Part shown: positions 1 through 47,275 of the stretch, piece by piece
How positions within the stretch are numbered: position 1 is the stretch's first letter
How the letters are laid out: every line of letters starts with the position of its first letter
Assembly (NCBI GenBank): GCA_934087065.1
Contig: CAKOIS010000004.1
Span: 419-64,418, forward strand
Direction of reading: 5' to 3'
Source of the DNA: an uncultured Bacilli bacterium
GTDB lineage: Bacteria; Bacillota_I; Bacilli_A; RF39; UBA660
DNA: 64,000 bases
Translations under genes and position numbers: made by a program
Notes under the pieces: generated by a model
Told to the model about the DNA's origin: nothing
The model's database searches: none
What the model saw: only the letters and a program-made list of their open reading frames with translations

Positions 1-515
1 CTCTACACAAAAACAATATAAATATTAAAGACGTTAACGTTGACTTATCAGTTGACTTTGCAAACCTAAGTGGAGCATATATTGGAAAACAAGGAGACTT
101 TGTTAACTTGTTTGAACCAAACGCATTAGCTTTAGAAAAAGAAGGTTATGGATGTGTACTTTCAAGCATCGGACTTATGAGTGGAGAACTTCCCTATACA
201 GTATTCCATGCTAAAAAAAGTTACATAGAAAACAATAAAGATACAATTAAAAAATTTACTAAAGGTATTCAAAAAGGTTTAGACTTCGTAAAAAATAATG
301 ATGCAACTAAAATTGCAGAAATTATAAAAAGTGAATTTACAAGTACTAGTTTTGAAGTCTTAGTAAGTGTTATAGAAAGATATAAAAACGCTGACAGTTG
401 GTGGGAAAGTACAGTTATCACTGAACGCGCATTTAATAATTTACTTGATTTAATGGAATACAATGGAGTGTTAGAAAGTACTGTTAATTATAACGACTTG
501 GTTTATAATGAATGA
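1..515 (+). CDS. ABC transporter substrate-binding protein, C-terminal part (NMT1/SsuA-like); open from window start
   Basis: Frame open from nt 3 with no start codon; sequence typical of aliphatic sulfonate/nitrate-type SBP; followed by cognate ATPase and permease genes. Confidence 0.6.
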   Translation, partial: LHKNNINIKDVNVDLSVDFANLSGAYIGKQGDFVNLFEPNALALEKEGYGCVLSSIGLMSGELPYTVFHAKKSYIENNKDTIKKFTKGIQKGLDFVKNNDATKIAEIIKSEFTSTSFEVLVSVIERYKNADSWWESTVITERAFNNLLDLMEYNGVLESTVNYNDLVYNE

Positions 516-1248
516 AATACTAAAAATTAAACACTTACACAAAACATATAACAGTATATCAAACGAAACACTAGCAGTAAGTGACACATCATTTACTGTA
601 TATGATGGGGAGTTTGTCTCTATAGTAGGCTCAAGTGGATGTGGAAAAAGTACCATACTAAACATAATTGCAGGACTAGATAACGACTACACTGGCTTAG
701 TTAAATTTAAAAGTGGCACAACAACAAGTTATATGCTACAAGACGATACCTTATTTCCTTGGTTAAATGTTCTTGACAATGCATTACTTGGTCTAAAAAT
801 ACAAAAGAAACTAACTATAGATAACATTAACTATGTTAAAAACTTACTTACTAAATATGGTCTAAAAGACTTCATGTACAAAAAAGTGACAGACCTAAGT
901 GGCGGTATGAAACAACGAGTAGCTCTAATTAGAACAATTGCTACAAAACCAAACCTAGTACTACTAGACGAACCCTTTAGTGCACTTGACTACCAAAACA
1001 GACTAAAAGTCAGTGTAGACGTATATAACATACTAAAAAAAGAAGGAATAACTACAATTATGGTAACTCATGACTTATCAGAAGCTCTAAGCATAAGTTC
1101 AAAAGTAATAGTAATGAGTAAAAGACCAACTAAAGTAAAGAATATCTATAACTTAGACTTTGACAAAAACCTATCTCCTTTAGAAAGAAGAAAAACTAGT
1201 ATATTTAACGAATACCTAGACTTACTATGGAGGGATATAGATGAGTGA
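508..1248 (+). CDS. ABC transporter ATP-binding protein (nitrate/sulfonate/taurine type)
   Basis: Walker A GSSGCGKST, ABC signature LSGGMKQRVAL, Walker B LLLDEPFSALD, H-loop; 8-nt overlap with upstream gene. Confidence 0.9.
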   Translation: MNEILKIKHLHKTYNSISNETLAVSDTSFTVYDGEFVSIVGSSGCGKSTILNIIAGLDNDYTGLVKFKSGTTTSYMLQDDTLFPWLNVLDNALLGLKIQKKLTIDNINYVKNLLTKYGLKDFMYKKVTDLSGGMKQRVALIRTIATKPNLVLLDEPFSALDYQNRLKVSVDVYNILKKEGITTIMVTHDLSEALSISSKVIVMSKRPTKVKNIYNLDFDKNLSPLERRKTSIFNEYLDLLWRDIDE

Positions 1249-2023
1249 TAGTAGAAAAAAATTCCTAAGATCCTACCGAAAGAACAAACTAATTATTAAA
1301 CTATCCCAAATATGCCTAGCATTATCTTTCTTACTAGTTTGGGAAGTATTAGCTAAATATGAAATAATAAACTCATTCATAACAAGTTCTCCTAGTAAAA
1401 TAGTAATAACAATAGTAAACTTATTTATAAAAGATAATCTAACATACCATATATTTGCAACATTATCAGAAACACTAATTGCTTTTATTATAACCCTAAT
1501 AATAAGTTTGACTTTAAGTATACTAATATATAAAAGTCCTACATTAGACAAAATAATAGACCCATATCTAACAGTAATAAATAGTTTACCTAAAGTAGCT
1601 TTAGGACCACTTCTAATAATATGGGTAGGGGCTAACTATAAAAGTATAATATTGATGGCTATTTTAATAAGTATAATTGTAAGCATACAATCAATTAGTA
1701 TAGGCTTTAAAAGTACTAACACAAATAGAATAAAACTACTTAAAAGTTTTAAAGCTACAGATAAAGACATACTAAAATATGTAGTAATACCAAGCAACTA
1801 TAAAATAATAATAAATAGCTGTAAAATAAATATAGGGCTATGTCTTATAGGTGTAATAATGGGAGAATTCCTAACAAGTAAAGCAGGCTTAGGTTACCTA
1901 ATACTTTATGGAAGTCAAGTATTTAACTTAAACCTAGTTATGAGTGGAATAATAATACTCTTAATAATATCAGTCATGCTTTACAAGATAATCACTACAA
2001 TAGAAAAACACTTAGATGTTTAA
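1241..2023 (+). CDS. ABC transporter permease (BPD-type, 6 TM)
   Basis: Hydrophobic; start overlaps the ATPase stop; operon context. Confidence 0.8.
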   Translation: MSDSRKKFLRSYRKNKLIIKLSQICLALSFLLVWEVLAKYEIINSFITSSPSKIVITIVNLFIKDNLTYHIFATLSETLIAFIITLIISLTLSILIYKSPTLDKIIDPYLTVINSLPKVALGPLLIIWVGANYKSIILMAILISIIVSIQSISIGFKSTNTNRIKLLKSFKATDKDILKYVVIPSNYKIIINSCKINIGLCLIGVIMGEFLTSKAGLGYLILYGSQVFNLNLVMSGIIILLIISVMLYKIITTIEKHLDV

Positions 2024-2028
2024 AACGA

Positions 2029-2075
2029 AGATAGGCGCGTCCGCCTAAAGGCGGATTATCTATCTCCGTTTTTTT
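2029..2075 (+). terminator. Rho-independent terminator of ABC operon
   Basis: GC-rich nested hairpin (gatag...tccgcc-taaa-ggcgga...ctatc) followed by T-run ccgttttttt. Confidence 0.8.
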
Positions 2076-2177
2076 CTTAATATCATATTATATAAACTAT
2101 AATTTAACCCTTAGATTACTTTATAGTAATTATATTAGTAAATTAATCGTTAGACACAGTTAAGTTAATGGGATCGT

Positions 2178-4109
2178 TTAGCATCCACTTGAAGTTTCAA
2201 CTATTTCATATGGTGTATCTGATGTCCCATTTCCTGTACTATATAGAGTGCAAGATTTGAGAGAAACTGCCGGACGCACACCGTACGCGTTGCTGACGTA
2301 GATGTGGCTCAAGCGGCCAGGGTTGGACGAACCGAACACGAAGAACACGTAAGCGCGGCTGCTATACCAAGCGTTAGGAGACAACAACCACCAGTAAGTT
2401 GAGCCTGTTGAGCTATAAGATGCATCTGTACTGCTAGAACTTGTTGTTAATGTTCCTTCCTTTGCATTCCTAAAATACCATGCATTTGCATTATAGTTTC
2501 CGGATATTCCACCTGCATAACTTATTTCATCTGCTGTCATTAATGCTATTGGGTATGTTAACTTTCCATTTCCTGCGCTACTATCTACTGTGAATTTGTC
2601 TTCTGTTGCTGCACAGTCATAACTTGGTGTTTTATTTGTTTCTAGTCTTGTGTCTGCTGCATAGTTAAATGATGAACTTACACTATATGTTCCATCAGTT
2701 ACACTTCTATCATTACAGTATACTGCTGTTGTACTTAAGTATTTTGTATAGTTAGTTTTTAGATTATTTTCATACCATGTATCTATTATTCCTTTTATTG
2801 TACTAGAATTTGTTTGATTTGTTCTATTATTTGCTTGTGAACCACTTGTTCCATACATATAGCCTACGTACATTGGGTCATTATATGTCTTATTGAACGC
2901 TGTACTTGAGCTTATATATGCATCAGTTGCTGTTGTGCTTGTTCCGTGGTATAGTAGTCTTACACTTCCATCTGAGTTTGTTCTTATTATTCTCCAGTAT
3001 AAGTCTTGATTACTTGCATTTTTTCCAAACTTTACCCAGTTTGTTGTTACGTTTCCAGCAAAATAATATACTGTTTTATTATCTTCTTTAGCTGTATAAA
3101 GTACTTGGTCTGTGCTATCAAATGCTGCGTTAAATGTTGTTCTATTTGTTGTTGCTATTCCTCTATCTGATAATAACTTAGCATATAATGTCGGTAAGAC
3201 TTCATATACACTACATATAGTTCCTTTTTGAACATTACTAAATTTAAGCGTACTTCCTGATACAGTTGGTGTTACATCATTAGTACAACTAATTGTTAAA
3301 TCGCTTAAAGTTTTAGATGTATTAGTTGGTGTTACTGTAAATTCTACATCTTCTCCCTTTAAAACTTGTTTTACATTCTTGTCAGCTGTAGCGTCTTTTA
3401 AATCTAACTCAATAGTTTTTAAATTACTATCAACATCACTACTGCTTCCACTAGGTAAGTATTCCCCTCTAGCACTTATTTGTGTTACAAAATATTTACC
3501 TTGACTAGCGTTAGTCGCGTCACTCTTAAGCCAAGCATATAATTTAAATGTTTTAGTTTCTCCTACAGCTATTAGTATATTTGATGCTATTTTATGGTTA
3601 CCGTCAGCATCAACATTAGCGCTATATAAAGTTGTTGTAGGAGTACTACTTCCTTCCCCAATAGCTATTTTAACTTCATCATCATTTACAAACTCACTAT
3701 ATTCTACCCCATCAGATATTATAGTACCTGCAGTTGGGTCTTTTTCTAAATATAAACTTACATATAATGGAATATCTCCATCATTAGTTAAAGTAAATAT
3801 ATAAGGCTTTAAATTACTCCAGTCACTTGCTGTAGATGGGTCACTTACGGGATATATCTTACTATAAACAGTATTACCATTAGCATCTTTTTCAGTTCCT
3901 ATAACATTACCTATATCACTTATAGTACTATTACAAGTACTATCTTTACAAAAAGCTAAAGAAATATCTCCAAACTTAATTGTATCAGTACTTCCTGTAG
4001 TATCTACTTTAAAAATTGCATAACTCATTGCAATAAAAACCAAACTAACTATAGCTACAACACCAATAGTTATTTTAATTTCTCTATTAATCATACCTTT
4101 TAGTCCCAT
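2178..4109 (-). CDS. Secreted surface protein: SipW-cognate signal peptide + TasA/camelysin-like N-terminal domain + ~330-aa C-terminal domain of unknown family (paralogue of 44540-47221)
   Basis: N-terminus ...AMSYAIFKVDTTGSTDTIKFGDISL resembles the TasA/CalY signal and mature start (A-F-x-D ... FxxGTLDL); SNLKPYIFTLTNDGDIPL resembles TasA SNLKPGDKLTKDFQFENNGSL; sipW-type gene lies upstream in the same strand; C-terminal region aligns with the 898-aa protein. Confidence 0.6.
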   Translation of the reverse strand: MGLKGMINREIKITIGVVAIVSLVFIAMSYAIFKVDTTGSTDTIKFGDISLAFCKDSTCNSTISDIGNVIGTEKDANGNTVYSKIYPVSDPSTASDWSNLKPYIFTLTNDGDIPLYVSLYLEKDPTAGTIISDGVEYSEFVNDDEVKIAIGEGSSTPTTTLYSANVDADGNHKIASNILIAVGETKTFKLYAWLKSDATNASQGKYFVTQISARGEYLPSGSSSDVDSNLKTIELDLKDATADKNVKQVLKGEDVEFTVTPTNTSKTLSDLTISCTNDVTPTVSGSTLKFSNVQKGTICSVYEVLPTLYAKLLSDRGIATTNRTTFNAAFDSTDQVLYTAKEDNKTVYYFAGNVTTNWVKFGKNASNQDLYWRIIRTNSDGSVRLLYHGTSTTATDAYISSSTAFNKTYNDPMYVGYMYGTSGSQANNRTNQTNSSTIKGIIDTWYENNLKTNYTKYLSTTAVYCNDRSVTDGTYSVSSSFNYAADTRLETNKTPSYDCAATEDKFTVDSSAGNGKLTYPIALMTADEISYAGGISGNYNANAWYFRNAKEGTLTTSSSSTDASYSSTGSTYWWLLSPNAWYSSRAYVFFVFGSSNPGRLSHIYVSNAYGVRPAVSLKSCTLYSTGNGTSDTPYEIVETSSGC

Positions 4110-4203
4110 TTATATCACCAACTTATTATCTTCTAATATAATAATTATAAAATAATTTTTTAATTTAATCAAGTAGGTATATACAAAAAAGAAATGTTTT
4201 TTA

Positions 4204-4659
4204 TTACATTTCTTGAATATTAAAAGATATTTCTACATTATTATATAAAGTTATACTATATTCTTTAGTTTCTTTTTTATTGATAATATTATTATCTAAT
4301 ATATAATAAGTAATATTATTAGATTTATAATTATCTAAATTTTCTAAATAAGTTAAGTTATCTAAATATTTTATTTTTAAGTCGTTTTTATTTAAGTTAT
4401 AACTATCTTTCACTCCTAAATATAAAAGATATTCTTTTTTATTTACATCGCTATTACTAACTTCTAAAGTTACACCTTTCTCATCTTCTTTTAATATAAC
4501 TTCTAGTCCTTCTCCATTATTAGCATATCTACTTGCTATAGTAGAATATTTAGACAAATCAATTTTACCCCACGCTATATATGTTAGAACAAGAATAACT
4601 AACATAAATGCTATTTCTGAAACTAAATAAATAATTTTTTTATTGATACTTTCAACCAT
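4204..4659 (-). CDS. Small N-terminally membrane-anchored protein in sipW operon (possible TapA-like accessory/anchor)
   Basis: Single N-terminal TM, Asn/Lys-rich extracellular part; sits between sipW-like and TasA-like genes. Confidence 0.4.
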   Translation of the reverse strand: MVESINKKIIYLVSEIAFMLVILVLTYIAWGKIDLSKYSTIASRYANNGEGLEVILKEDEKGVTLEVSNSDVNKKEYLLYLGVKDSYNLNKNDLKIKYLDNLTYLENLDNYKSNNITYYILDNNIINKKETKEYSITLYNNVEISFNIQEM

Positions 4660-4733
4660 AATACCACCCTTATTGATTCTATATTGTATATTGCTAACTA
4701 AGAAAAGTCAAGAAAAAAAACGCCCATCGTGCG

Positions 4734-5420
4734 TTAATTTATTTTCTTAGGTCTACCTCTTTTAGGTTTAGGTTTCTCTTCCATTTTTTCTTTTCTTCTT
4801 CTAGTTGGTAAATCATCTTCTTGTTCTTCTTCTAATTCTTGCATTTTATTTCTTACTTTAATTAGTTTTAATAATTTCATAATATCATAGATTATTACAC
4901 CCATCGCAGGAATAAGTATTACAGTAAACCAACCAAACTTACTAGCTAAGAAGAATTGTACTCTTCCAAGTTGTGGTATTACAAATCTAACTTTACCTAT
5001 AACTTGACTTTGGTCAATCATCTCGTTATCCATAACAGGGTTAGCATCTCCCTTAGTTCTAAATACTATACCATTATTAGTAACATGTTTTTCAACAACT
5101 CTGTGTGTTATTGGAGTTGAACCAAAGAATGAATTAGTACTATAATATGATATAACATCATTTATTTGAATATCTTCTGGATCCATTTTAGCTACAAACA
5201 CAACATCATAAACTGCTATATCAGGTGTCATACTAGGACTTATAATAGTATATAAACCAAGTGGTTGCCTTTGTCCCTTAGCCTGCGCTATTTTATTAAT
5301 TGCAATATATGACAATAAAAACGCACCAATTAAACACAAAATAGCCATAACACACCAAGAAATAGTCTTAGCTATTAAATAAATTACTCCCCTTTGTTTT
5401 TTCTCTTTCATATCTTCCAC
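4734..5420 (-). CDS. sipW: Type I signal peptidase, SipW-like (ER/archaeal type, S26B) with basic C-terminal tail
   Basis: N-terminal TM, catalytic-Ser motif ISPSMTPDI (SipW-type SxSM), C-terminal TM, tail ...KPKPKRGRPKK. Confidence 0.7.
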   Translation of the reverse strand: MEDMKEKKQRGVIYLIAKTISWCVMAILCLIGAFLLSYIAINKIAQAKGQRQPLGLYTIISPSMTPDIAVYDVVFVAKMDPEDIQINDVISYYSTNSFFGSTPITHRVVEKHVTNNGIVFRTKGDANPVMDNEMIDQSQVIGKVRFVIPQLGRVQFFLASKFGWFTVILIPAMGVIIYDIMKLLKLIKVRNKMQELEEEQEDDLPTRRRKEKMEEKPKPKRGRPKKIN

Positions 5421-5587
5421 CTACTATAATTTATTATATAAGATTTTCTTTATTTATACAAGGTAGTTTTTACTATATTTGACAAAATATGACAAATATT
5501 AGCAATAAATAGTACTCGTAAAACACAAAAGTAAATTTATTTTACAAGTAATACATATTTGCAAGAGGAATGATACATATTTATAAT

Positions 5588-5636
5588 ATACAAAAACAAA
5601 GTAAGCTTACTTTTGCTCACTTTGTTTTTTACTATA
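5588..5636 (-). terminator. Bidirectional hairpin terminator at the 3' end of queH
   Basis: aaacaaagt ... actttgttt 9-bp stem flanked by A-run and T-run; overlaps last queH codons. Confidence 0.45.
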
Positions 5637-6209
5637 TATACATCCACAATAGTTTTGTCTATATAAGTTATATTTTTTAGATAATTCCATAGATAATTTA
5701 TATCCTTCTTTTTTCTTAAAGTCTGAATATAAGAATTTTACTTTTGTTAATTCTTCTATATCTTTTCCAATAGCATTTAACACTTGACTATTTTTATATG
5801 GGCTTACTGTTAAAGTAGTACCGAAATATAGAAAGTTATTTTCTTTTGCAGTAAGTGCAGTTTTAATTAGTCTTAATTCATAACATTTATGGCATCTATA
5901 ACCACCCTCAGGTAAATCTTCAAGTCCTTTTGACATGCTTTTAAACTTTTCATTCTCATAGTCACAGTCTAAAAACTTAATGCCAAACTCACTAACTATT
6001 CTTTTTTGTTCTTCTTTTCTTTTTAAGTATTCTTCTAATGGTTCAATATTTGGGTTATAGTAAAATATTGTTACATCAAAATAATCTTTTAATCTTGTTA
6101 TTACAGCAGTAGAGCATGGTGCACAGCAAGAGTGTAAAAGTATAGAAGGCTTACGCCCATTTAACTTGGTAATTATCTCATCCAATACTTTATCATAATT
6201 AGTTTTCAT
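5607..6209 (-). CDS. queH: Epoxyqueuosine reductase QueH (DUF208)
   Basis: LLHSCCAPCS motif and C-terminal CGC cysteines characteristic of QueH. Confidence 0.8.
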   Translation of the reverse strand: MKTNYDKVLDEIITKLNGRKPSILLHSCCAPCSTAVITRLKDYFDVTIFYYNPNIEPLEEYLKRKEEQKRIVSEFGIKFLDCDYENEKFKSMSKGLEDLPEGGYRCHKCYELRLIKTALTAKENNFLYFGTTLTVSPYKNSQVLNAIGKDIEELTKVKFLYSDFKKKEGYKLSMELSKKYNLYRQNYCGCIYSKKQSEQK

Positions 6210-6215
6210 AATTAC

Positions 6216-8030
6216 CTACTTTTGTTTTTTAGCATCTTCTTTTTTTCTAAGTTCAGTATTTAATATTTTCTTTCTTAATCTAAAACTCTTTGGAGTAACT
6301 TCTACAAGTTCATCAGTATTAATATAGTCTAATGCTATTTCTAGAGTTAATTGTCTAGGTCTTTTAAGTACAACAGTATGGTCTTTACTAGCACTTCTTG
6401 TATTAGTTAAGTTTTTAGCTTTAGTTACATTTACTGCTAAATCGTTATCTCTATTATTTTCTCCAACTATCATACCTTCATATACTTCTGTACCTGGTTC
6501 AATAAACATGATACCACGGTCTTCTAAAGCACCTAAACCATATGCAGTAGCTTTTCCGTTTTCCATAGATACAAGTACACCTAGTTTTCTTTCTCCAACT
6601 GGATTAGGGTTAACTGGTCCATATTCTTTAAATGTATGATTTATTATTCCGTAACCTTTAGTTAAAATTAAGAATTCGTTAACAAAACCAATTAAACCTC
6701 TAGATGGTACTAAGTATTCAAGCTTAGTATTAGTTTCAAAAGATTTCATGTTAATCATTTGACCATCACGACTTGCCAAACTTTCTATTACTGCTCCCAC
6801 AGTGTCTGTTGGTGCTTCTATTAAAACTTCTTCGTATGGCTCACATTGAACTCCATCTATTTCTTTTACAATTACTTCTGGTTTTGATACTTGAAGTTCA
6901 AAACCTTCTCTTCTCATGTTTTCAATTAATATTGATAAGTGTAACTCTCCACGTCCACTTACTATCCAGTTTTCTGCATCTTTTTGTTCAACTCTTAAAG
7001 ATACATCTTTTTCTAGTTCTTTCATTAATCTTTCTTCTATTTTTCTAGCAGTAAGTAGTTTACCTTCTTTACCAGAGAAAGGACTTGTGTTAACTCCGAA
7101 TGTCATTTTTAATGTAGGCTCTTCTATTCTAAGGACAGGAAGAGCGTCTTCTTTTCCTATTTCACAAACTGTTTCACCAACTGAAATGTCAGGAAGTCCA
7201 GATATACCAACTATTTCTCCAGCTGATGCACTTTCTATTTCTTCTCTTTTTATTCCAGTAAAACCAAATAATTTTTGTATTCTAAATTGTTTAATACTAC
7301 CATCTAATCTTACACATGAAACCATTTCTCCAGTTTTAACTGTACCATTAGCAATAGTACCTACACCAATTCTTCCAACATAATCGTTATAGTCTAAAAG
7401 TGCTGGTTGGAATTGTAATGGGGCATTCACGTCTCCCTTTGGTTCAGGTATAGTGTTAATAATTGTTTCAAATATTGGGTCCATTGTGTGTTTTTGTGTT
7501 GATAAGTCTTCATTATAACTACTAGTTCCATTTAGTGCACTTGCATAAATTATAGGAAAATCTATTTGCTCATCACTTGCACCTAAGTCAATAAATAACT
7601 CAAGTACTTCATCAATTACTTCACTAATTCTTACATTTTCTCTATCAACTTTGTTAATAACTACTATTGGTTTTAAATTAGCTTCTAATGCTTTTTTAAG
7701 AACAAATCTTGTTTGAGGCATAGTACCTTCTCTAGCATCAACTAGTAAGATTACACCATCAACCATATGCATTATTCTTTCAACTTCTCCACCAAAGTCA
7801 GCATGTCCTGGTGTATCAACTATATTAATTTTATAATCTTTATAATGTACACCAGTTGTTTTGGCTAAAATTGTTATTCCTCTTTCTTTTTCTATATCAT
7901 TTGAGTCCATTACTCTTTTATCATGTGTTTCATTTTCTCTAAAAGTTCCACTTTGATTTAATAATTCGTCTACTAATGTAGTTTTACCATGATCAACGTG
8001 TGCTATTATTGCAACATTTCTTAATTTCAT
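6216..8030 (-). CDS. typA: Translational GTPase TypA/BipA
   Basis: [16 protein letters not shown]1, DTPGHADF G3, NKVD G4; 604 aa EF-G-like architecture. Confidence 0.95.
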
Positions 8031-16965: not shown

Positions 16966-19215
16966 TTAAAATGTTATAGATTTTAATATATATTTTTGTA
17001 CTCTAAGTAAATCTAATATTGTTACTTCCCCGTCTGCATTAGTGTCTCCACTTATTAAATATTCACTACTTAATTTAGAAGAACCAAGTAAGTGTTTTTG
17101 AACCTTTAACAAGTCAAGTATTGTCACTTCTCCGTCTCCACTCACATCTCCTATGATGCTTATTACAAAGCTCTTACTTTCTCCAGATGGAGTAATCATC
17201 TTTATTGTTTGTCCAGTCTTTAAAGTACTTCCACTTCCTACTCCAACACCATTACTTTCATTAATTGTAACAGTTGTACCAGCACTATACTTATTTATAC
17301 TGTTTATTAGTGTCCCAGCATTAGTATTAGGACTAATATTATATATTACACTACCATTAACTTTAACACTTAAATTACTTATTATATCATTAATACTTGT
17401 AGTATCATTTACTTTTATAATAGTTAACTTATAAATTCTAACATCTCCGTTTTCACTAGTTACCTTAATTTCATGAATAGTCTTATCACTAGTTAAATCT
17501 AACTTACCCGTACCTTCTACTTTACTAGAAGAATCAGTAAGTACTACACTTAAATTATATTCTTTATCATTTTTATTAACATACACATTAAATTCTAGTA
17601 TATCTTTATCAAAATTACTTACATTCTTCCCATTAATACTTATACTTTCAATTGTATTTATTTTACTTACATTAGTTGGTAAACTTACCACTTCAGGCAT
17701 ATTTAAAAATACTGGAATATCAAATAAGAATGGTTCATCTAGTAACTTCATTTCTTGATATGCTATATATGCGTCAGCCCCTTCACTTGCAGGCGCTAAG
17801 ACGTTAGTTTGATATGAATGAGTATACAATGTAGCACTTGTATTATAAGCTGGGTCCACATTAAATCTTTGTAAATATTGTGTGTGTTGTCCATCAGCTA
17901 TATACCCTTCAGCTATTATTTGTGCTCCACCATAAATTGCTTTTTCTCTAGTATCCCACGGTTTATAATATTTATCATCTCCACCACATTTACTACCACA
18001 CGCATACTTTAACCCATTTAACACTGGGTTTGGCCATCCTGCTGTTTTATAAGCATTAATATTATAAAAGTTATAATACCCTTTTAAATTAAGTCCATTA
18101 TACAATTCACTATATGTTCCACTTACAGCAACGTAACTCTCATTTGTTGCTCCTTCTCCATGTGCACGAGTTGCTAAATGCACAGGACTCACGTTATGTG
18201 TAAACCCTGCTCCAATAAACATATATTTATATTCATCAGTATTCAAAAATGACCCACTAAACACACTACTAATAGTATTATAATATTTCTTAGTTATCTC
18301 ACTATCTTTATTTAAAGTATCCTTATTATCACTTCCATAATTATATTTCAAACTTTCAAACATAAACACAAACTTTTCAGTTAAAAAGTTTCTTGGGTCT
18401 AAATAAAATGCTGTCACTTCAGGTTTAGCTCTATACCAACCACTCCCATCAACTGAATCATCATCATTCACTCTATATAAATCATTTGCATAGTTTATTA
18501 AGTTTGTCTTACTTGTTACTCCACTTACTACTTCACTCCAATGTAAATTTGTAATAATTGGTTTAAAAGTCCATGTAGGATGCAACTTATGTAACTTAGT
18601 TAAATACGGAATATAACTTTCAGGAAATCCTAGTTCACTCAAATACTTAGCATATTCTGTATCCGTATCCACCATTTCACTCTTTTTAAGAACAAACTTA
18701 GAACACACATATCCTATACTATTCTTATTATATTTTATTTTATAAAATCCTTCACTACATCCACTTCCACTTATCTTGTCTCCCATAATTGTAACATTAG
18801 TTCCAGGTAAAAGTGTAGTAATTAAACTAGAATTATAACTATTACTTTTCATTACTTTAATATTAACACCATTTATTCTAGCTTCAAAAGTATCAGTGTT
18901 GTATGAAACGTCTTCTCCCCCAGTCACTTCTCCAATTGACACATATAACCCACACATATAAGCTTCAGTATTATTAATTTTAATCTTATACCATCCACCA
19001 CTACAGTTTACATCATCTTTATTATATAACTCATCACTCACTAGATCTAACACAGTATTTTTTTCATTAATTTGTCCTAATCTTTTATAATTCGTACCAG
19101 GTCCTTCTCTATATCCAACGTATGTATTAGTAGTGTATCCACTAAGCGCATTTACTTTGGTAACCATGAAAAAACTTACAAATATAGTTATAACTAAAAA
19201 CATTATTTTTTTCAT
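16966..19215 (-). CDS. Secreted multidomain putative peptidoglycan hydrolase: 2x SH3b + glucosaminidase-like catalytic region + cadherin-like domain + C-terminal type-I dockerin
   Basis: Signal peptide; SH3b-like repeats; C-terminal duplicated Ca-binding segments GDVSGDGEVTILDLLKVQKHLLG / GDTNADGEVTILDLLRVQKYILK typical of dockerin. Confidence 0.6.
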   Translation of the reverse strand: MKKIMFLVITIFVSFFMVTKVNALSGYTTNTYVGYREGPGTNYKRLGQINEKNTVLDLVSDELYNKDDVNCSGGWYKIKINNTEAYMCGLYVSIGEVTGGEDVSYNTDTFEARINGVNIKVMKSNSYNSSLITTLLPGTNVTIMGDKISGSGCSEGFYKIKYNKNSIGYVCSKFVLKKSEMVDTDTEYAKYLSELGFPESYIPYLTKLHKLHPTWTFKPIITNLHWSEVVSGVTSKTNLINYANDLYRVNDDDSVDGSGWYRAKPEVTAFYLDPRNFLTEKFVFMFESLKYNYGSDNKDTLNKDSEITKKYYNTISSVFSGSFLNTDEYKYMFIGAGFTHNVSPVHLATRAHGEGATNESYVAVSGTYSELYNGLNLKGYYNFYNINAYKTAGWPNPVLNGLKYACGSKCGGDDKYYKPWDTREKAIYGGAQIIAEGYIADGQHTQYLQRFNVDPAYNTSATLYTHSYQTNVLAPASEGADAYIAYQEMKLLDEPFLFDIPVFLNMPEVVSLPTNVSKINTIESISINGKNVSNFDKDILEFNVYVNKNDKEYNLSVVLTDSSSKVEGTGKLDLTSDKTIHEIKVTSENGDVRIYKLTIIKVNDTTSINDIISNLSVKVNGSVIYNISPNTNAGTLINSINKYSAGTTVTINESNGVGVGSGSTLKTGQTIKMITPSGESKSFVISIIGDVSGDGEVTILDLLKVQKHLLGSSKLSSEYLISGDTNADGEVTILDLLRVQKYILKSITF

Positions 19216-44539: not shown

Positions 44540-47221
44540 CTAATTCATTACATATGGATCACTTTGTGTTCCACTTCCTGTTACTGTTATATCAGACTTT
44601 AAAGCCATAACTGGAGAATAAGCATTTGCATTAGTCACTGAAGCACCAGCACCACCGTTTCCTAAATACCCTGGTCCATCTACATAGAATACGTAACTAG
44701 TATCCGCAGGATTAGGATTTATTAGCCATTGTAATTGTTGAGAACCTTGATATAACCAGTTGTTATTATAACATGCATATATGTTACTATATTTACTTGG
44801 CATATTTGTTCTTACACAATCACTCGCTAGTACAGCATATCCATAATCACTTGGATATGTTAACCCTACGCTTCCAATATATGTTGCAGTGCTAGAAGAA
44901 CTTGGTCCTATGCTTCCTTTACTTTCCAGTACCCTCTCCATTTTATATAAATCTGCTGATGTATATGATGTATATGAGTTTGATGTACCCAAATACATCT
45001 TGTAATTCACGGTGTTTTTAAAGTTAGTCAAACTATAATTAATTAATGTGTTTCTAGAAATGGTTGACGTCGGGTAATAATTTAAACTAGTACCTAAATT
45101 ATACAAAGAAGTTGGATAATTATTTCGTTCATAATACTTTCTTACTCTTATTACATTTTCCCCATTTTCTCCATCTGGAAATAATCCTATAATTCTCCAT
45201 AATTCTTTAGTTCCATTATTTTCCATATAAATATAGTTATTTGGGTCACTACCTTCATATCTATATCCATTTTCATTTACTGCATTTGTTTGAATTAATG
45301 TTGCTAATGATGTTCCATTTTTCTTAAATGTTATTGAACAACTTTTTGCACTTATTATATTGCTTATTGTGTAAGTATTACCGCTTAATGTTCCACCACA
45401 TGTATCTGTTTCAAGTTCTGCTTTATAACCTGAATTAGGTGCTACAGTAAATTTTGCATCTTTACCTTCTTCAACAAGTACTGTACCTGTACCACTTCCG
45501 CTATTAACATTTAAATTAACTTCATAAGTGTTAACTGGTACTGCTTCTATAATATAAGGATTTTCTGCACTTCCATCTCCAGTTTTATATATGTTGCCTC
45601 CATTAATTGAAATCACTGGTCTTACAGCTAAAACATTTGATAAAATAATAAGTGGAGATCCAATTCTACTAATTTCTACATTTTTTCCACCTAAGCCATA
45701 AACATTCCCGCGATATTGAGTTGATACTCCTTCAGGAGTTAATAACCAGCTCCACAAATCACCAGTAAGATTTTTGCTTAAGCTATTGTTTGAATACCAC
45801 ACTTTTTCATTTTTTTCATGATACAATCCTCCAGCATAAACAGCTTCATCTACTGTCATTAAAGAAATAGAATACTTTAAATCACCATTTCCAGTGTTTG
45901 TATTTAAAACGCTAAAACTGTCTTCTTTTGACGCACAAGAATAAGTAGGATTACTATTATTTCCAATTGTTTTTATTCTATCACTAGCAGAAAAGCTTGT
46001 ATAATTTCCAGGTGTTTTATAATTATCATAAGAACTGTTTACTGATATACTTCTATCTTGGCAATAAACTGATTCTTGACTTATATAACTATTTAATTTC
46101 AATAAATGTTTGTTATACCAACTATCTATATAATTTTTAATTACACTTGAGTTTTCATTTGTTCTGTTATTTTCTAAACTTCCTTTAGTTCCATACATAT
46201 ACCCAATATTTAATGGATCAGCTTCTTCAAATTCACTAAACACTGACGTTCCAATATAGCCTTTTTCTGTATCTGAACTTGTTCCTGAATATAATAATCT
46301 TATACTACCGTCTTGGTTTGATCTTATTATTCTCCAATACATTGGATCACCTTTTTTAGCAATTTGAACACTTCTACAATTAGCCATTTCGTATTTAACT
46401 CCTCTAGAAGTAATCTTATATGAACTACATTCTGCCATTGTAGAAAACTCTTTTTGAGAAACAGTAAACACATCCCCAGTATCTACATTCTTAAAATCAC
46501 CTAAAATTGTAGTCTTATCTTCTTGCCACTCTCCAAACTTTACCCAGTTATTTCTAGCATCTCCTGCAAAGTAATACACATCAGTATTATTTTCTTTTGC
46601 TTTATATAGTGTATTTACATTACTTTCAGTGTATATGTTACTAAAGTCTGTTCTAGTTTTTATTGTTGGGTTATCAGCTAGTAACTTATCATATATTTTA
46701 GGTTTCCCTGTACTTTCTTCAATAGCTAAAGTCCCACCTAGTTTCTTCCCCATATCACTACTTTGATCTTCCTCTATACTTACGTATTTAAATTCTACTT
46801 GATATGTTTGCTTACTTCCCTTTGGAATTACTACATCATATGCTAAAACTACATCTTTTGATGTTTCTGTTTTAATTACATTTAAATAGTTATCCATATT
46901 GTATCCAGTATCACTTGTTATTTTATACTGAAGTGTATTTATACTTTCAAACGTATTAACTAACCCCTTTAATAAAATATTATAGTTAAAATCTTCTTTA
47001 CTATTATTAGTAATTGTAAATGTTTTAACATTATTCCATCCAGGACTTATTGTTTCATCAGCTATACTGGAAGTATCCGTAAAAGTTATCGCAACATTCT
47101 TTGCTACTAAGTTTATATCTTTGGGGTTACCAATTACTCTTGCTGCGAAAAACGCAAGACTACAACTTATTGTAACTATTATTAAAGTTGTTACTATTAC
47201 TCCTAAATCTATTTTTTTCAT
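44540..47221 (-). CDS. Large secreted surface protein: TasA-like N-terminus + two tandem copies of the novel ~330-aa domain shared with 2178-4109
   Basis: Start at Met-6 (AGGAAGTGG RBS); N-terminal TM/signal; WRIIRSNQDGSIRLLY, MYxGYMYG, VRPVISI motifs repeated (second copy WRIIGLFPDGENG...SPVMALK). Confidence 0.6.
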   Translation of the reverse strand: MKKIDLGVIVTTLIIVTISCSLAFFAARVIGNPKDINLVAKNVAITFTDTSSIADETISPGWNNVKTFTITNNSKEDFNYNILLKGLVNTFESINTLQYKITSDTGYNMDNYLNVIKTETSKDVVLAYDVVIPKGSKQTYQVEFKYVSIEEDQSSDMGKKLGGTLAIEESTGKPKIYDKLLADNPTIKTRTDFSNIYTESNVNTLYKAKENNTDVYYFAGDARNNWVKFGEWQEDKTTILGDFKNVDTGDVFTVSQKEFSTMAECSSYKITSRGVKYEMANCRSVQIAKKGDPMYWRIIRSNQDGSIRLLYSGTSSDTEKGYIGTSVFSEFEEADPLNIGYMYGTKGSLENNRTNENSSVIKNYIDSWYNKHLLKLNSYISQESVYCQDRSISVNSSYDNYKTPGNYTSFSASDRIKTIGNNSNPTYSCASKEDSFSVLNTNTGNGDLKYSISLMTVDEAVYAGGLYHEKNEKVWYSNNSLSKNLTGDLWSWLLTPEGVSTQYRGNVYGLGGKNVEISRIGSPLIILSNVLAVRPVISINGGNIYKTGDGSAENPYIIEAVPVNTYEVNLNVNSGSGTGTVLVEEGKDAKFTVAPNSGYKAELETDTCGGTLSGNTYTISNIISAKSCSITFKKNGTSLATLIQTNAVNENGYRYEGSDPNNYIYMENNGTKELWRIIGLFPDGENGENVIRVRKYYERNNYPTSLYNLGTSLNYYPTSTISRNTLINYSLTNFKNTVNYKMYLGTSNSYTSYTSADLYKMERVLESKGSIGPSSSSTATYIGSVGLTYPSDYGYAVLASDCVRTNMPSKYSNIYACYNNNWLYQGSQQLQWLINPNPADTSYVFYVDGPGYLGNGGAGASVTNANAYSPVMALKSDITVTGSGTQSDPYVMN

Positions 47222-47275
47222 ATATACCACTTCCATCTATATTATTTACATATTCTAACAAAATTATTATAACAT

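Follow-up and report, generated by a model that had tools for sequence, protein, structure and literature searches.

What is the domain that forms the C-terminal half of the 643-amino-acid (aa) protein p1, and what could it do for its host? The p1 gene lies in a stretch of 64,000 nucleotides from an uncultured Bacilli bacterium (assembly GCA_934087065.1, contig CAKOIS010000004.1, positions 419 to 64,418), denoted here as the window, which also encodes a second protein, p2 (898 aa), with related segments. A first-pass annotation made from the letters alone had described the segment as a novel domain of ~330 aa, present in three copies and not assignable to a named family. The analysis presented here places it in the superfamily of DUF6273 and C-type-lectin-like domains and reads p1, with a probability of roughly 60%, as a modular exported surface protein with an exchangeable DUF6273-type head that would bind a ligand. 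The parts of the two proteins are as follows.

2178..4109, minus strand: p1, an open reading frame (ORF) of 643 aa, with the shared domain encoded in its 3' half
2181..3200, minus strand: p1 head domain, aa 304-643, of enlarged DUF6273 type and C-type-lectin-like (family hidden Markov model (HMM), Pfam, AlphaFold2 and Foldseek)
3201..3449, minus strand: p1 immunoglobulin (Ig)-like beta domain, aa ~221-303, linking the core module to the head (predicted model)
3450..4010, minus strand: p1 N-terminal beta-sandwich core module, aa ~34-220 (homologues mostly stand-alone proteins)
4011..4109, minus strand: hydrophobic helix at the N-terminus of p1, aa 3-33, with the invariant motif SYAIFKV at its end (predicted model, invariant residues)
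44540..47236, minus strand: p2 gene, encoding the 898-aa protein (ORF list)
45527..46711, minus strand: first head of p2, aa 176-570, belonging to the p1-head subfamily and carrying a ~70-aa insertion (BLASTP, family HMM)
44543..45319, minus strand: C-terminal head of p2, aa 640-898, of a short, divergent subfamily of the same superfamily (HMM, hhalign)

A discrete module of ~330 aa is indeed common to p1 and p2, and by sequence comparison the match goes far beyond chance. BLASTP aligns p1 306-638 with p2 179-564 (E=2e-54, 31% identity), and a family HMM derived from 148 domain segments, all of them from outside database proteins, recovers p1 303-643 with E=1e-119 and p2 176-570 with E=5e-93. 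The motif blocks proposed earlier, namely YYFAG..NWVKFG, WRIIR.N.DGS.RLLY, GYMYGT, VYC[NQ]DRS, Y.CA..ED.F.V, NG.L.Y.I.LMT.DE, W.LL[ST]P, VRP..S., and G.G....PY.I, are present in p1 and in the first p2 copy. Few columns of the family alignment are conserved as strongly, most of the blocks being >90% conserved in the 148 segments; p2, however, has PLNIGYMYGT where the p1-type block reads PMY[VI]GYMYGT, and the third copy lacks most of the blocks. Altogether, >35 positions, surface-type polar residues included, are conserved at >=90%. In domain numbering (p1 residue = domain position + 303), this holds for C162 and C196, which probably form a disulfide, but not for the second Cys pair that had been pointed out (KSC ... 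terminal C), which is confined to one subgroup. Charged residues are near-invariant at D164-R165 (CNDRS), D224-E225 (TADE), and R309 (VRP). Variability is highest in two blocks, domain 231-240 and 281-300, which lie on either side of the W-W-L-L-S-P strand close to the C-terminus. Insertions are commonest after domain positions 39, 198, 27, 209, and 171, and the first head of p2 harbors one of ~70 residues with two Cys after NWVKFG (window ~46310-46540, aa ~235-300), which p1 does not have. The Ser/Thr-rich stretch, also listed as a feature of the domain, occurs in p1 (domain 247-262) but shows 95% gaps in the other members and is the sole loop of the head model with a low predicted local distance difference test (pLDDT) score; being an insertion unique to p1, it was rejected as a family trait, e.g. 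a glycosylation tract.

The count of three copies holds for two. Pairwise, p2 640-898 (~259 aa) reaches only E=4e-5 at 24% identity (BLASTP), and the family HMM is significant solely over its last ~80 residues (aa 802-898, 1.8e-10). CNDRS, TADE, and VRP are missing, and the segment ends in AYSPVMALKSD..GSGTQSDPYVMN. It belongs to a family of its own with 1917 database hits, typically proteins of ~430 aa. Profile-profile comparison of the short with the long family (hhalign) nevertheless gives a probability of 99.9% and E=5e-32, and the two align colinearly all the way between Y-Y-x-G..N-W at the start and G-x-G..P-Y at the end. Weak pairwise and HMM scores together with this strong profile match therefore indicate two copies of one subfamily plus, judged from sequence, a true but remote and shorter homologue rather than an equivalent repeat.

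The domain also belongs to a named family. Residues 524-619 of p1 match Pfam DUF6273 (PF19789) with 27.2 bits (gathering threshold 23.5, E=4e-6); the match is partial, covering profile positions 88-172 of 172 and the last ~100 residues of the head. Neither copy in p2 reaches the DUF6273 threshold, so that p2 is tied to the family via its homology to p1 only. The model is matched by 13 of the 41 relatives in alignment A1 (best 3.1e-9) and by distant multi-copy members (P0121, 1.3e-28; P0165, 6.3e-37), and many of the 120 closest database homologues carry a precomputed PF19789 label. For the first ~220 residues of the head no Pfam match was obtained even at E<=10, and Pfam searches with the conserved part's first 136 residues and with the short head returned noise only. 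These results suggest a large "long-form" subfamily that is under-covered by Pfam DUF6273.

The fold agrees with this placement. An AlphaFold2 model of the head, based on a 41-sequence alignment, is of high quality (pLDDT 94.9, predicted template modelling score 0.94). Foldseek against the PDB, a check that the first-pass annotation had proposed, yields one significant match, 9qa6 (E=1.7e-5, probability 1.0, 333 columns, 13% identity, TMq 0.36), the cryo-EM structure of an immunoglobulin A (IgA) peptidase from Thomasclavelia ramosa, which bears a DUF6273 domain. Among predicted viral structures (BFVD), most of the best matches (E 5e-6 to 4e-4) are DUF6273 proteins of gut phages, which match with E=2e-5 to 4e-4 and probability 1.0. 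With Foldseek, structures of canonical C-type-lectin-like domains (CTLDs) come up no better than E=5-7, and Lectin_C of Pfam has no match at E<=1, the EPN/QPD, WND, and long-loop motifs not having been inspected directly. In the T. ramosa enzyme, the N-terminal domain was termed DUF6273 (PMC12402451) and described as a decorated CTLD core (residues 31-321) of double the typical CTLD size, which lacks the long loop and disulfides of canonical CTLDs and is not required for the cleavage of IgA (PMC12237041). DUF6273 domains of phages are reported as C-type-lectin-like targets of diversity-generating retroelements (DGRs) and as receptor-binding proteins; their variable region is C-terminal in Toutatisvirus targets and Mtd and lies close to the 5' end of the encoding gene in tentaclins (PMC10743442, bioRxiv 2024.10.15.618418). 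Because of the Pfam matches, the Foldseek matches to 9qa6 and to phage DUF6273 proteins, and this literature, the head is assigned to a known superfamily: it is a long-form (~330 aa) DUF6273/C-type-lectin-like member and no new fold. In the model, its CTLD-like core appears to be covered by long decorations, and it is this core that the predicted fold would share with DUF6273 domains. The earlier observation was thus largely right and its reading as a novel, unassignable domain was not, although the family now found is not a well-characterised one and its Pfam model covers the last third of the unit only. The refutation that the annotation itself had named, a clear match to a well-characterised family over the conserved blocks, thereby holds only by half.

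While domain class, fold, and modular use on surface proteins were already known, exchange of the head as a cassette between near-identical strains is new and is the most informative new fact of this analysis. The segment concerned is

2024..3200, no strand assigned: strain-replaced segment, head-coding DNA plus the 3' intergenic region (comparison with L085, L086, and L087)

The three metagenomic contigs L085, L086, and L087 share the locus that runs from QueH via a signal peptidase gene (sipW) and an ORF of 151 aa to p1 and an ATP-binding cassette (ABC) transporter operon. L085 and L086 are 95-96% identical to window 6283..3201/3202 and 2023/2078..1, with no similarity to the window between ~3201 and 2023/2078, i.e. 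in the head-coding segment and the 3' spacer. In L085 this place is taken by an unrelated head of ~200 aa (P0271 aa ~304-506; L085 3085-3711; SYKSAYNLLEYIGSTGTQYIDTGY...), which is not DUF6273 and for which no Pfam match and no PDB sequence match was obtained. L086 carries a short-type head like the C-terminal domain of p2, broken by a deletion and a frameshift. L087 has the long head type, 71% identical in 2178-3200 vs. 94-96% in the stalk, sipW, QueH, and BipA; its identity steps down at window ~3200, and the breakpoint of L085 and L086 lies at 3200/3201. In the flanks and the N-terminal 303 residues the strains share ~95% identity. A comparable difference is seen in the p2 orthologue of UBA11492, whose second head is of the long type where the window has the short type. 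Near-identical flanks next to differing heads therefore indicate that the head is exchanged as a unit by recombination, the donors probably being paralogues. Several close p1 orthologues are truncated or frameshifted in the head, e.g. P0272 (315 aa), followed by an overlapping ORF of 214 aa, and P0275 (477 aa), followed by one of 106 aa; the cases concern L086 3180-3260, L087 ~5400-5540, P0275, P0276, and P0277. A p1-type protein with no head is viable. Downstream of the ABC operon, the sister strains show a further difference (L085 6373-7566, L086 6582-7235), one having a HipA_C-like and the other an AbiEii-like gene, so that the p1 neighborhood holds further strain-variable genes.

The head unit is very common. 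When 1.84 billion representatives were scanned exhaustively with HMMER, it was detected at E<=1e-3 in 4625 clusters (50% identity), of which 2943 remain at <=1e-10 and 568 at <=1e-30. The unit shows sharp boundaries, spans ~300-330 aa, is usually C-terminal, and often occurs in tandem, one protein carrying between 2 and about 14 copies: P0121 (3528 aa) harbors 7 copies and P0165 (4905 aa) 14 matched stretches. These two giant proteins also bear VWA, Flg_new, Big_2, and CHB_HEX_C domains. In contigs of one genome per species, 574 relatives were confirmed by way of the single peptide pattern YWRIIR[TI]N; the best 80 among them all derive from uncultured gut Bacilli, "Tenericutes", Clostridium sp. 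CAG:628, or metagenome-assembled genomes (MAGs) of the UBA11492 type. Single MAGs contain 12-14 or more loci. Many paralogues (loci L002-L080) are located no more than a few hundred bases from the end of a contig. Repeated head-coding DNA probably breaks short-read assemblies, and copy numbers per genome are therefore likely underestimated. With thousands of sequence clusters and dozens of copies per genome, the head domain is among the most expanded surface modules of these poorly known, uncultured Bacilli of the human and animal gut.

How would such a head be presented? From the N-terminus, p1 is ordered as hydrophobic helix, beta-sandwich core, Ig-like domain, and head. Both p1 and p2, called surface proteins in the first-pass annotation, look exported, each having a hydrophobic segment at the N-terminus, conserved Cys pairs, and domains of the beta-sandwich or Ig-like type. 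Two roles come into question for the p1 helix (aa 3-33), signal peptide or membrane anchor; Y30, F33, and V35 are invariant in this N-terminal region. In p1, p2, and dozens of paralogues the N-terminus is hydrophobic, and a [SG]x[AG][YWIF]F motif recurs in it. In complete paralogues of other genomes, a short basic region comes first, then follow a hydrophobic stretch, [SG]x[AG][YW]F, and a strand-like ..DL.I.F.. segment. This pattern resembles the signal peptides of TasA and camelysin, which depend on SipW. The core module with its leader (p1 aa 1-220, window 3450-4109) has 35 invariant positions, including C54, C59, and SYAIFKV, and in related bacteria it is mostly a stand-alone protein of 221-230 aa (P0289-P0338; L081-L084 5001-5690), one cluster of which occurs on 142 contigs. 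No Pfam, NCBIfam, or PDB sequence match was found for it. The model of the N-terminal module (pLDDT 80) has no significant fold match in the PDB (best Foldseek E=1.6e-3); TasA is not among the top 50 listed matches, and the donor-strand fiber proteins CanA, Saci_0406, PapG, and CS20 appear at E>0.01 only. A TasA-like identity of the module is unproven, given that no PDB fold match is significant. The Ig-like domain is predicted as all-beta (pLDDT ~85-95) and is not contained in the stand-alone homologues of ~225 aa. Ig-like and Flg_new_2 domains are, like the conserved Cys pair, further signs of extracellular display.

Two neighboring genes bear on the question of export.

4204..4659, minus strand: small protein of 151 aa with an N-terminal hydrophobic segment, candidate partner of the p1 core module (conserved neighbor)
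4734..5420, minus strand: SipW/archaeal-type signal peptidase I gene (TIGR02228, E=4.5e-28)

The signal peptidase gene scores 98.1 bits with TIGR02228 (cut-off 51.85) and matches the SipW model with E=8.5e-21, under the cut-off of that model. It lies two genes upstream of p1, an arrangement kept in L085-L087; promoter- and terminator-like sites lie between the sipW, 151-aa ORF, and p1 genes. As sipW is adjacent at the p1 locus only, it was rejected as a general companion of the family. The 151-aa ORF precedes the p1 orthologue in L085-L087 (87-89% identity), and in L081-L084 a homologue (172 aa, 30% identity; L081 4390-4908) precedes the stand-alone core, sipW not being adjacent there. Its product may be an accessory or partner of the core module. 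It carries a YIAWGKID motif, and its PapD_N match (E=0.025) is not significant. Other relatives start differently: 5 of the 41 members of alignment A1 begin with a type IV pilin N-methylation (N_methyl) motif, which suggests that such head-bearing proteins are modular pilins with a DUF6273-type tip. The same head therefore seems to be mounted on different display devices. A 982-aa protein (L063 4012-) combines the head with a type IV pilin start (MNKKGFTLIEIMVVL...).

From these parts, a broader but rather unlikely picture can be drawn, namely an undescribed surface-fiber or anchor system of small-genome gut Bacilli, with these proteins as its subunits or tip proteins. In it, a SipW-processed core of ~190 aa, partnered with the small accessory protein, would form a universal stalk onto which recombination grafts interchangeable lectin-like heads. 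Three head types were seen: long DUF6273, short DUF6273-like, and the unrelated one of ~200 aa. If true, such a system would give strain-level switching of the binding specificity for host, glycan, or microbe.

The reading preferred here, an exported p1 with an exchangeable ligand-binding head, is narrower. The N-terminus would be processed by the neighboring SipW-type signal peptidase or else serve as a membrane anchor, and the head would be held outward at the C-terminal end, farthest from the N-terminal hydrophobic segment. There it may bind a ligand, for instance a glycan or protein presented by host mucus, by particles of the diet, or by other microbes, with a putative binding face formed by the variable stretches 231-240 and 281-300 around the W-W-L-L-S-P strand. 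Recombination with paralogues would swap the head wholesale and thereby change binding specificity, antigenicity, or both. A role in ligand binding, as an adhesin or receptor-binding domain, is favored because the fold class is one of phage receptor-binding proteins and of bacterial adhesin-like domains, the unit is multiplied in tandem, and the variable blocks are near the C-terminus.

Several observations weigh against this reading. The Pfam model spans just the last third of the head unit, and the family profile has no sequence match in the PDB; phmmer and profile searches of PDB sequences returned nothing but noise, be it with the domain itself or with the long, the short, or the N-terminal family. 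TM-scores to the fold matches are modest (0.33-0.41), and therefore only the core is shared with them. The T. ramosa domain, the one solved relative, was assigned no function. The strongly conserved polar residues R165, D164, D224, E225, and R309 could mark a functional site in place of the variable face. Some of the "alternative heads" are frameshifted and may reflect pseudogenes, phase variation, or assembly errors. On the side of export, sipW adjoins the p1 locus but 0 of the 79 other paralogue loci, and NCBIfam, its model of SipW-cognate signal peptides included, has no match for p1, p2, or their N-termini. Because of this, the lack of similarity to TasA, and the promoter- and terminator-like sites between the genes, p1 as a SipW substrate is something we infer.

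The main rival, which we consider unlikely, holds that the head is mainly a variable, immunodominant shield or spacer for antigenic variation, with no specific ligand, and is exchanged in order to evade IgA or phage and not to retarget binding. It would account for wholesale head replacement between ~95%-identical strains and for the large paralogue families inside single genomes. Headless core proteins are common, hence the head is dispensable, and the solved relative sits on an IgA-degrading enzyme without being needed for catalysis. However, a mere shield fits poorly with the family-wide conservation described above, which in segments as diverse as these 148 argues for a conserved activity, and with the reports of phage DUF6273 domains as receptor-binding modules.

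If the near-invariant charged residues D164-R165, D224-E225, and R309 were catalytic, the head could be an enzyme, e.g. one modifying glycans or peptides on a lectin-like scaffold in the manner of formylglycine-generating enzymes; the unit also has double the size of a plain lectin domain. This is very unlikely: no catalytic family is matched in Pfam, NCBIfam, or PDB, no His, Ser, or Cys nucleophile is conserved beyond the Cys pair, and arrays of up to ~14 tandem copies are typical of binding modules. The motifs LS.eE, WWLRSP, and VRPA, which we take to be framework motifs of non-catalytic DUF6273 domains, likewise count against catalysis.

The weakest alternative, a phage-derived receptor-binding protein or DGR target diversified by a retroelement, can draw on the recurrence of DUF6273 domains as DGR targets in gut phages, on the phage proteins among the closest predicted structures, and on a most variable block near the C-terminus as in DGR targets, but it is highly improbable in view of the chromosomal housekeeping flanks (QueH, BipA, ABC transporter, SSB, YchF, FtsH), the absence of a tblastn match of the head in 50,697 phage records, and strain variation by whole-cassette replacement with no adenine-specific mutagenesis. 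In the 64-kb window, the only repeats are those coding for the p1/p2 motifs, with no template/variable repeat (TR/VR) pair among them (no ORF-by-ORF search for a reverse transcriptase was made), and DGR diversification in this window was rejected for lack of TR/VR-like repeats.

The genomic surroundings are inconspicuous. The window has a G+C content of 28%. On one side, p1 is flanked by an NMT1/ABC-transporter operon, on the other by the 151-aa ORF, the SipW-type signal peptidase, QueH, and a BipA-like GTPase; further genes encode FtsH, RNase R, a class II aminoacyl-tRNA synthetase, an LCP and PASTA protein, SSB, and YchF. The window is ordinary chromosome of a walled Bacillota organism. The closest genome is the MAG "Bacillota bacterium UBA11492", with 95.5% identity in the flanks beside the p2 orthologue; the assembly index has no exact entry for p1. 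An ORF of 749 aa (window 16966-19215, minus strand) combines a bacterial SH3_3 domain with a type I dockerin at the C-terminus (E=1e-12 and 2e-13 in Pfam), which hints at surface assembly of the cohesin-dockerin type in this organism.

Taken together, the assignment to DUF6273 and CTLDs, the solved relative from T. ramosa, and the cassette exchange offer a testable entry to attachment or recognition in the gut, and the abundance of the family and head-swapping at an orthologous locus make the head a reasonable experimental target.

Among known systems, the p1 head resembles Pfam DUF6273 in its colinear order of a beta-hairpin with W (WRII), a helix (..WY.NL), LMTADE, WWLLSP, and VRPAVSL, and in its occurrence on extracellular multi-domain proteins, frequently as tandem arrays; it differs in size, with ~330 aa in the p1-type unit vs. 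172 positions in the model. With the N-terminal domain of 9qa6 (A31-A321, IgAse/ThomasA) it shares an oversized CTLD core and the setting of a surface protein of Gram-positive gut bacteria. The IgAse domain, however, has a structural Zn site (D78/H90/C126) and lies N-terminal to a metallopeptidase, in a protein anchored by sortase, whereas the p1 head is C-terminal with no peptidase attached and has a conserved Cys pair, and no profile-level sequence match connects the two. Phage DGR-target and receptor-binding proteins (tentaclins, Mtd-like) are similar in fold class, in their distal position on Ig-like stalks, and in variability leaning toward the C-terminus; in contrast to them, the p1 head has no phage context, match in phage records, or TR/VR repeat and is diversified by cassettes. 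The TasA/TapA/SipW system of Bacillus likewise places a SipW-type peptidase gene beside a small accessory and a beta-sandwich protein, and the p1 hydrophobic segment ends in an aromatic motif of the A-x-F type as in that system. The p1 core is, however, without sequence or significant fold similarity to TasA or camelysin, and TasA is not known to carry a lectin-like head. Should the fiber or anchor system sketched above exist, it would be a functional analogue of tip swapping in phage tail fibers or of modular type IV pilins.

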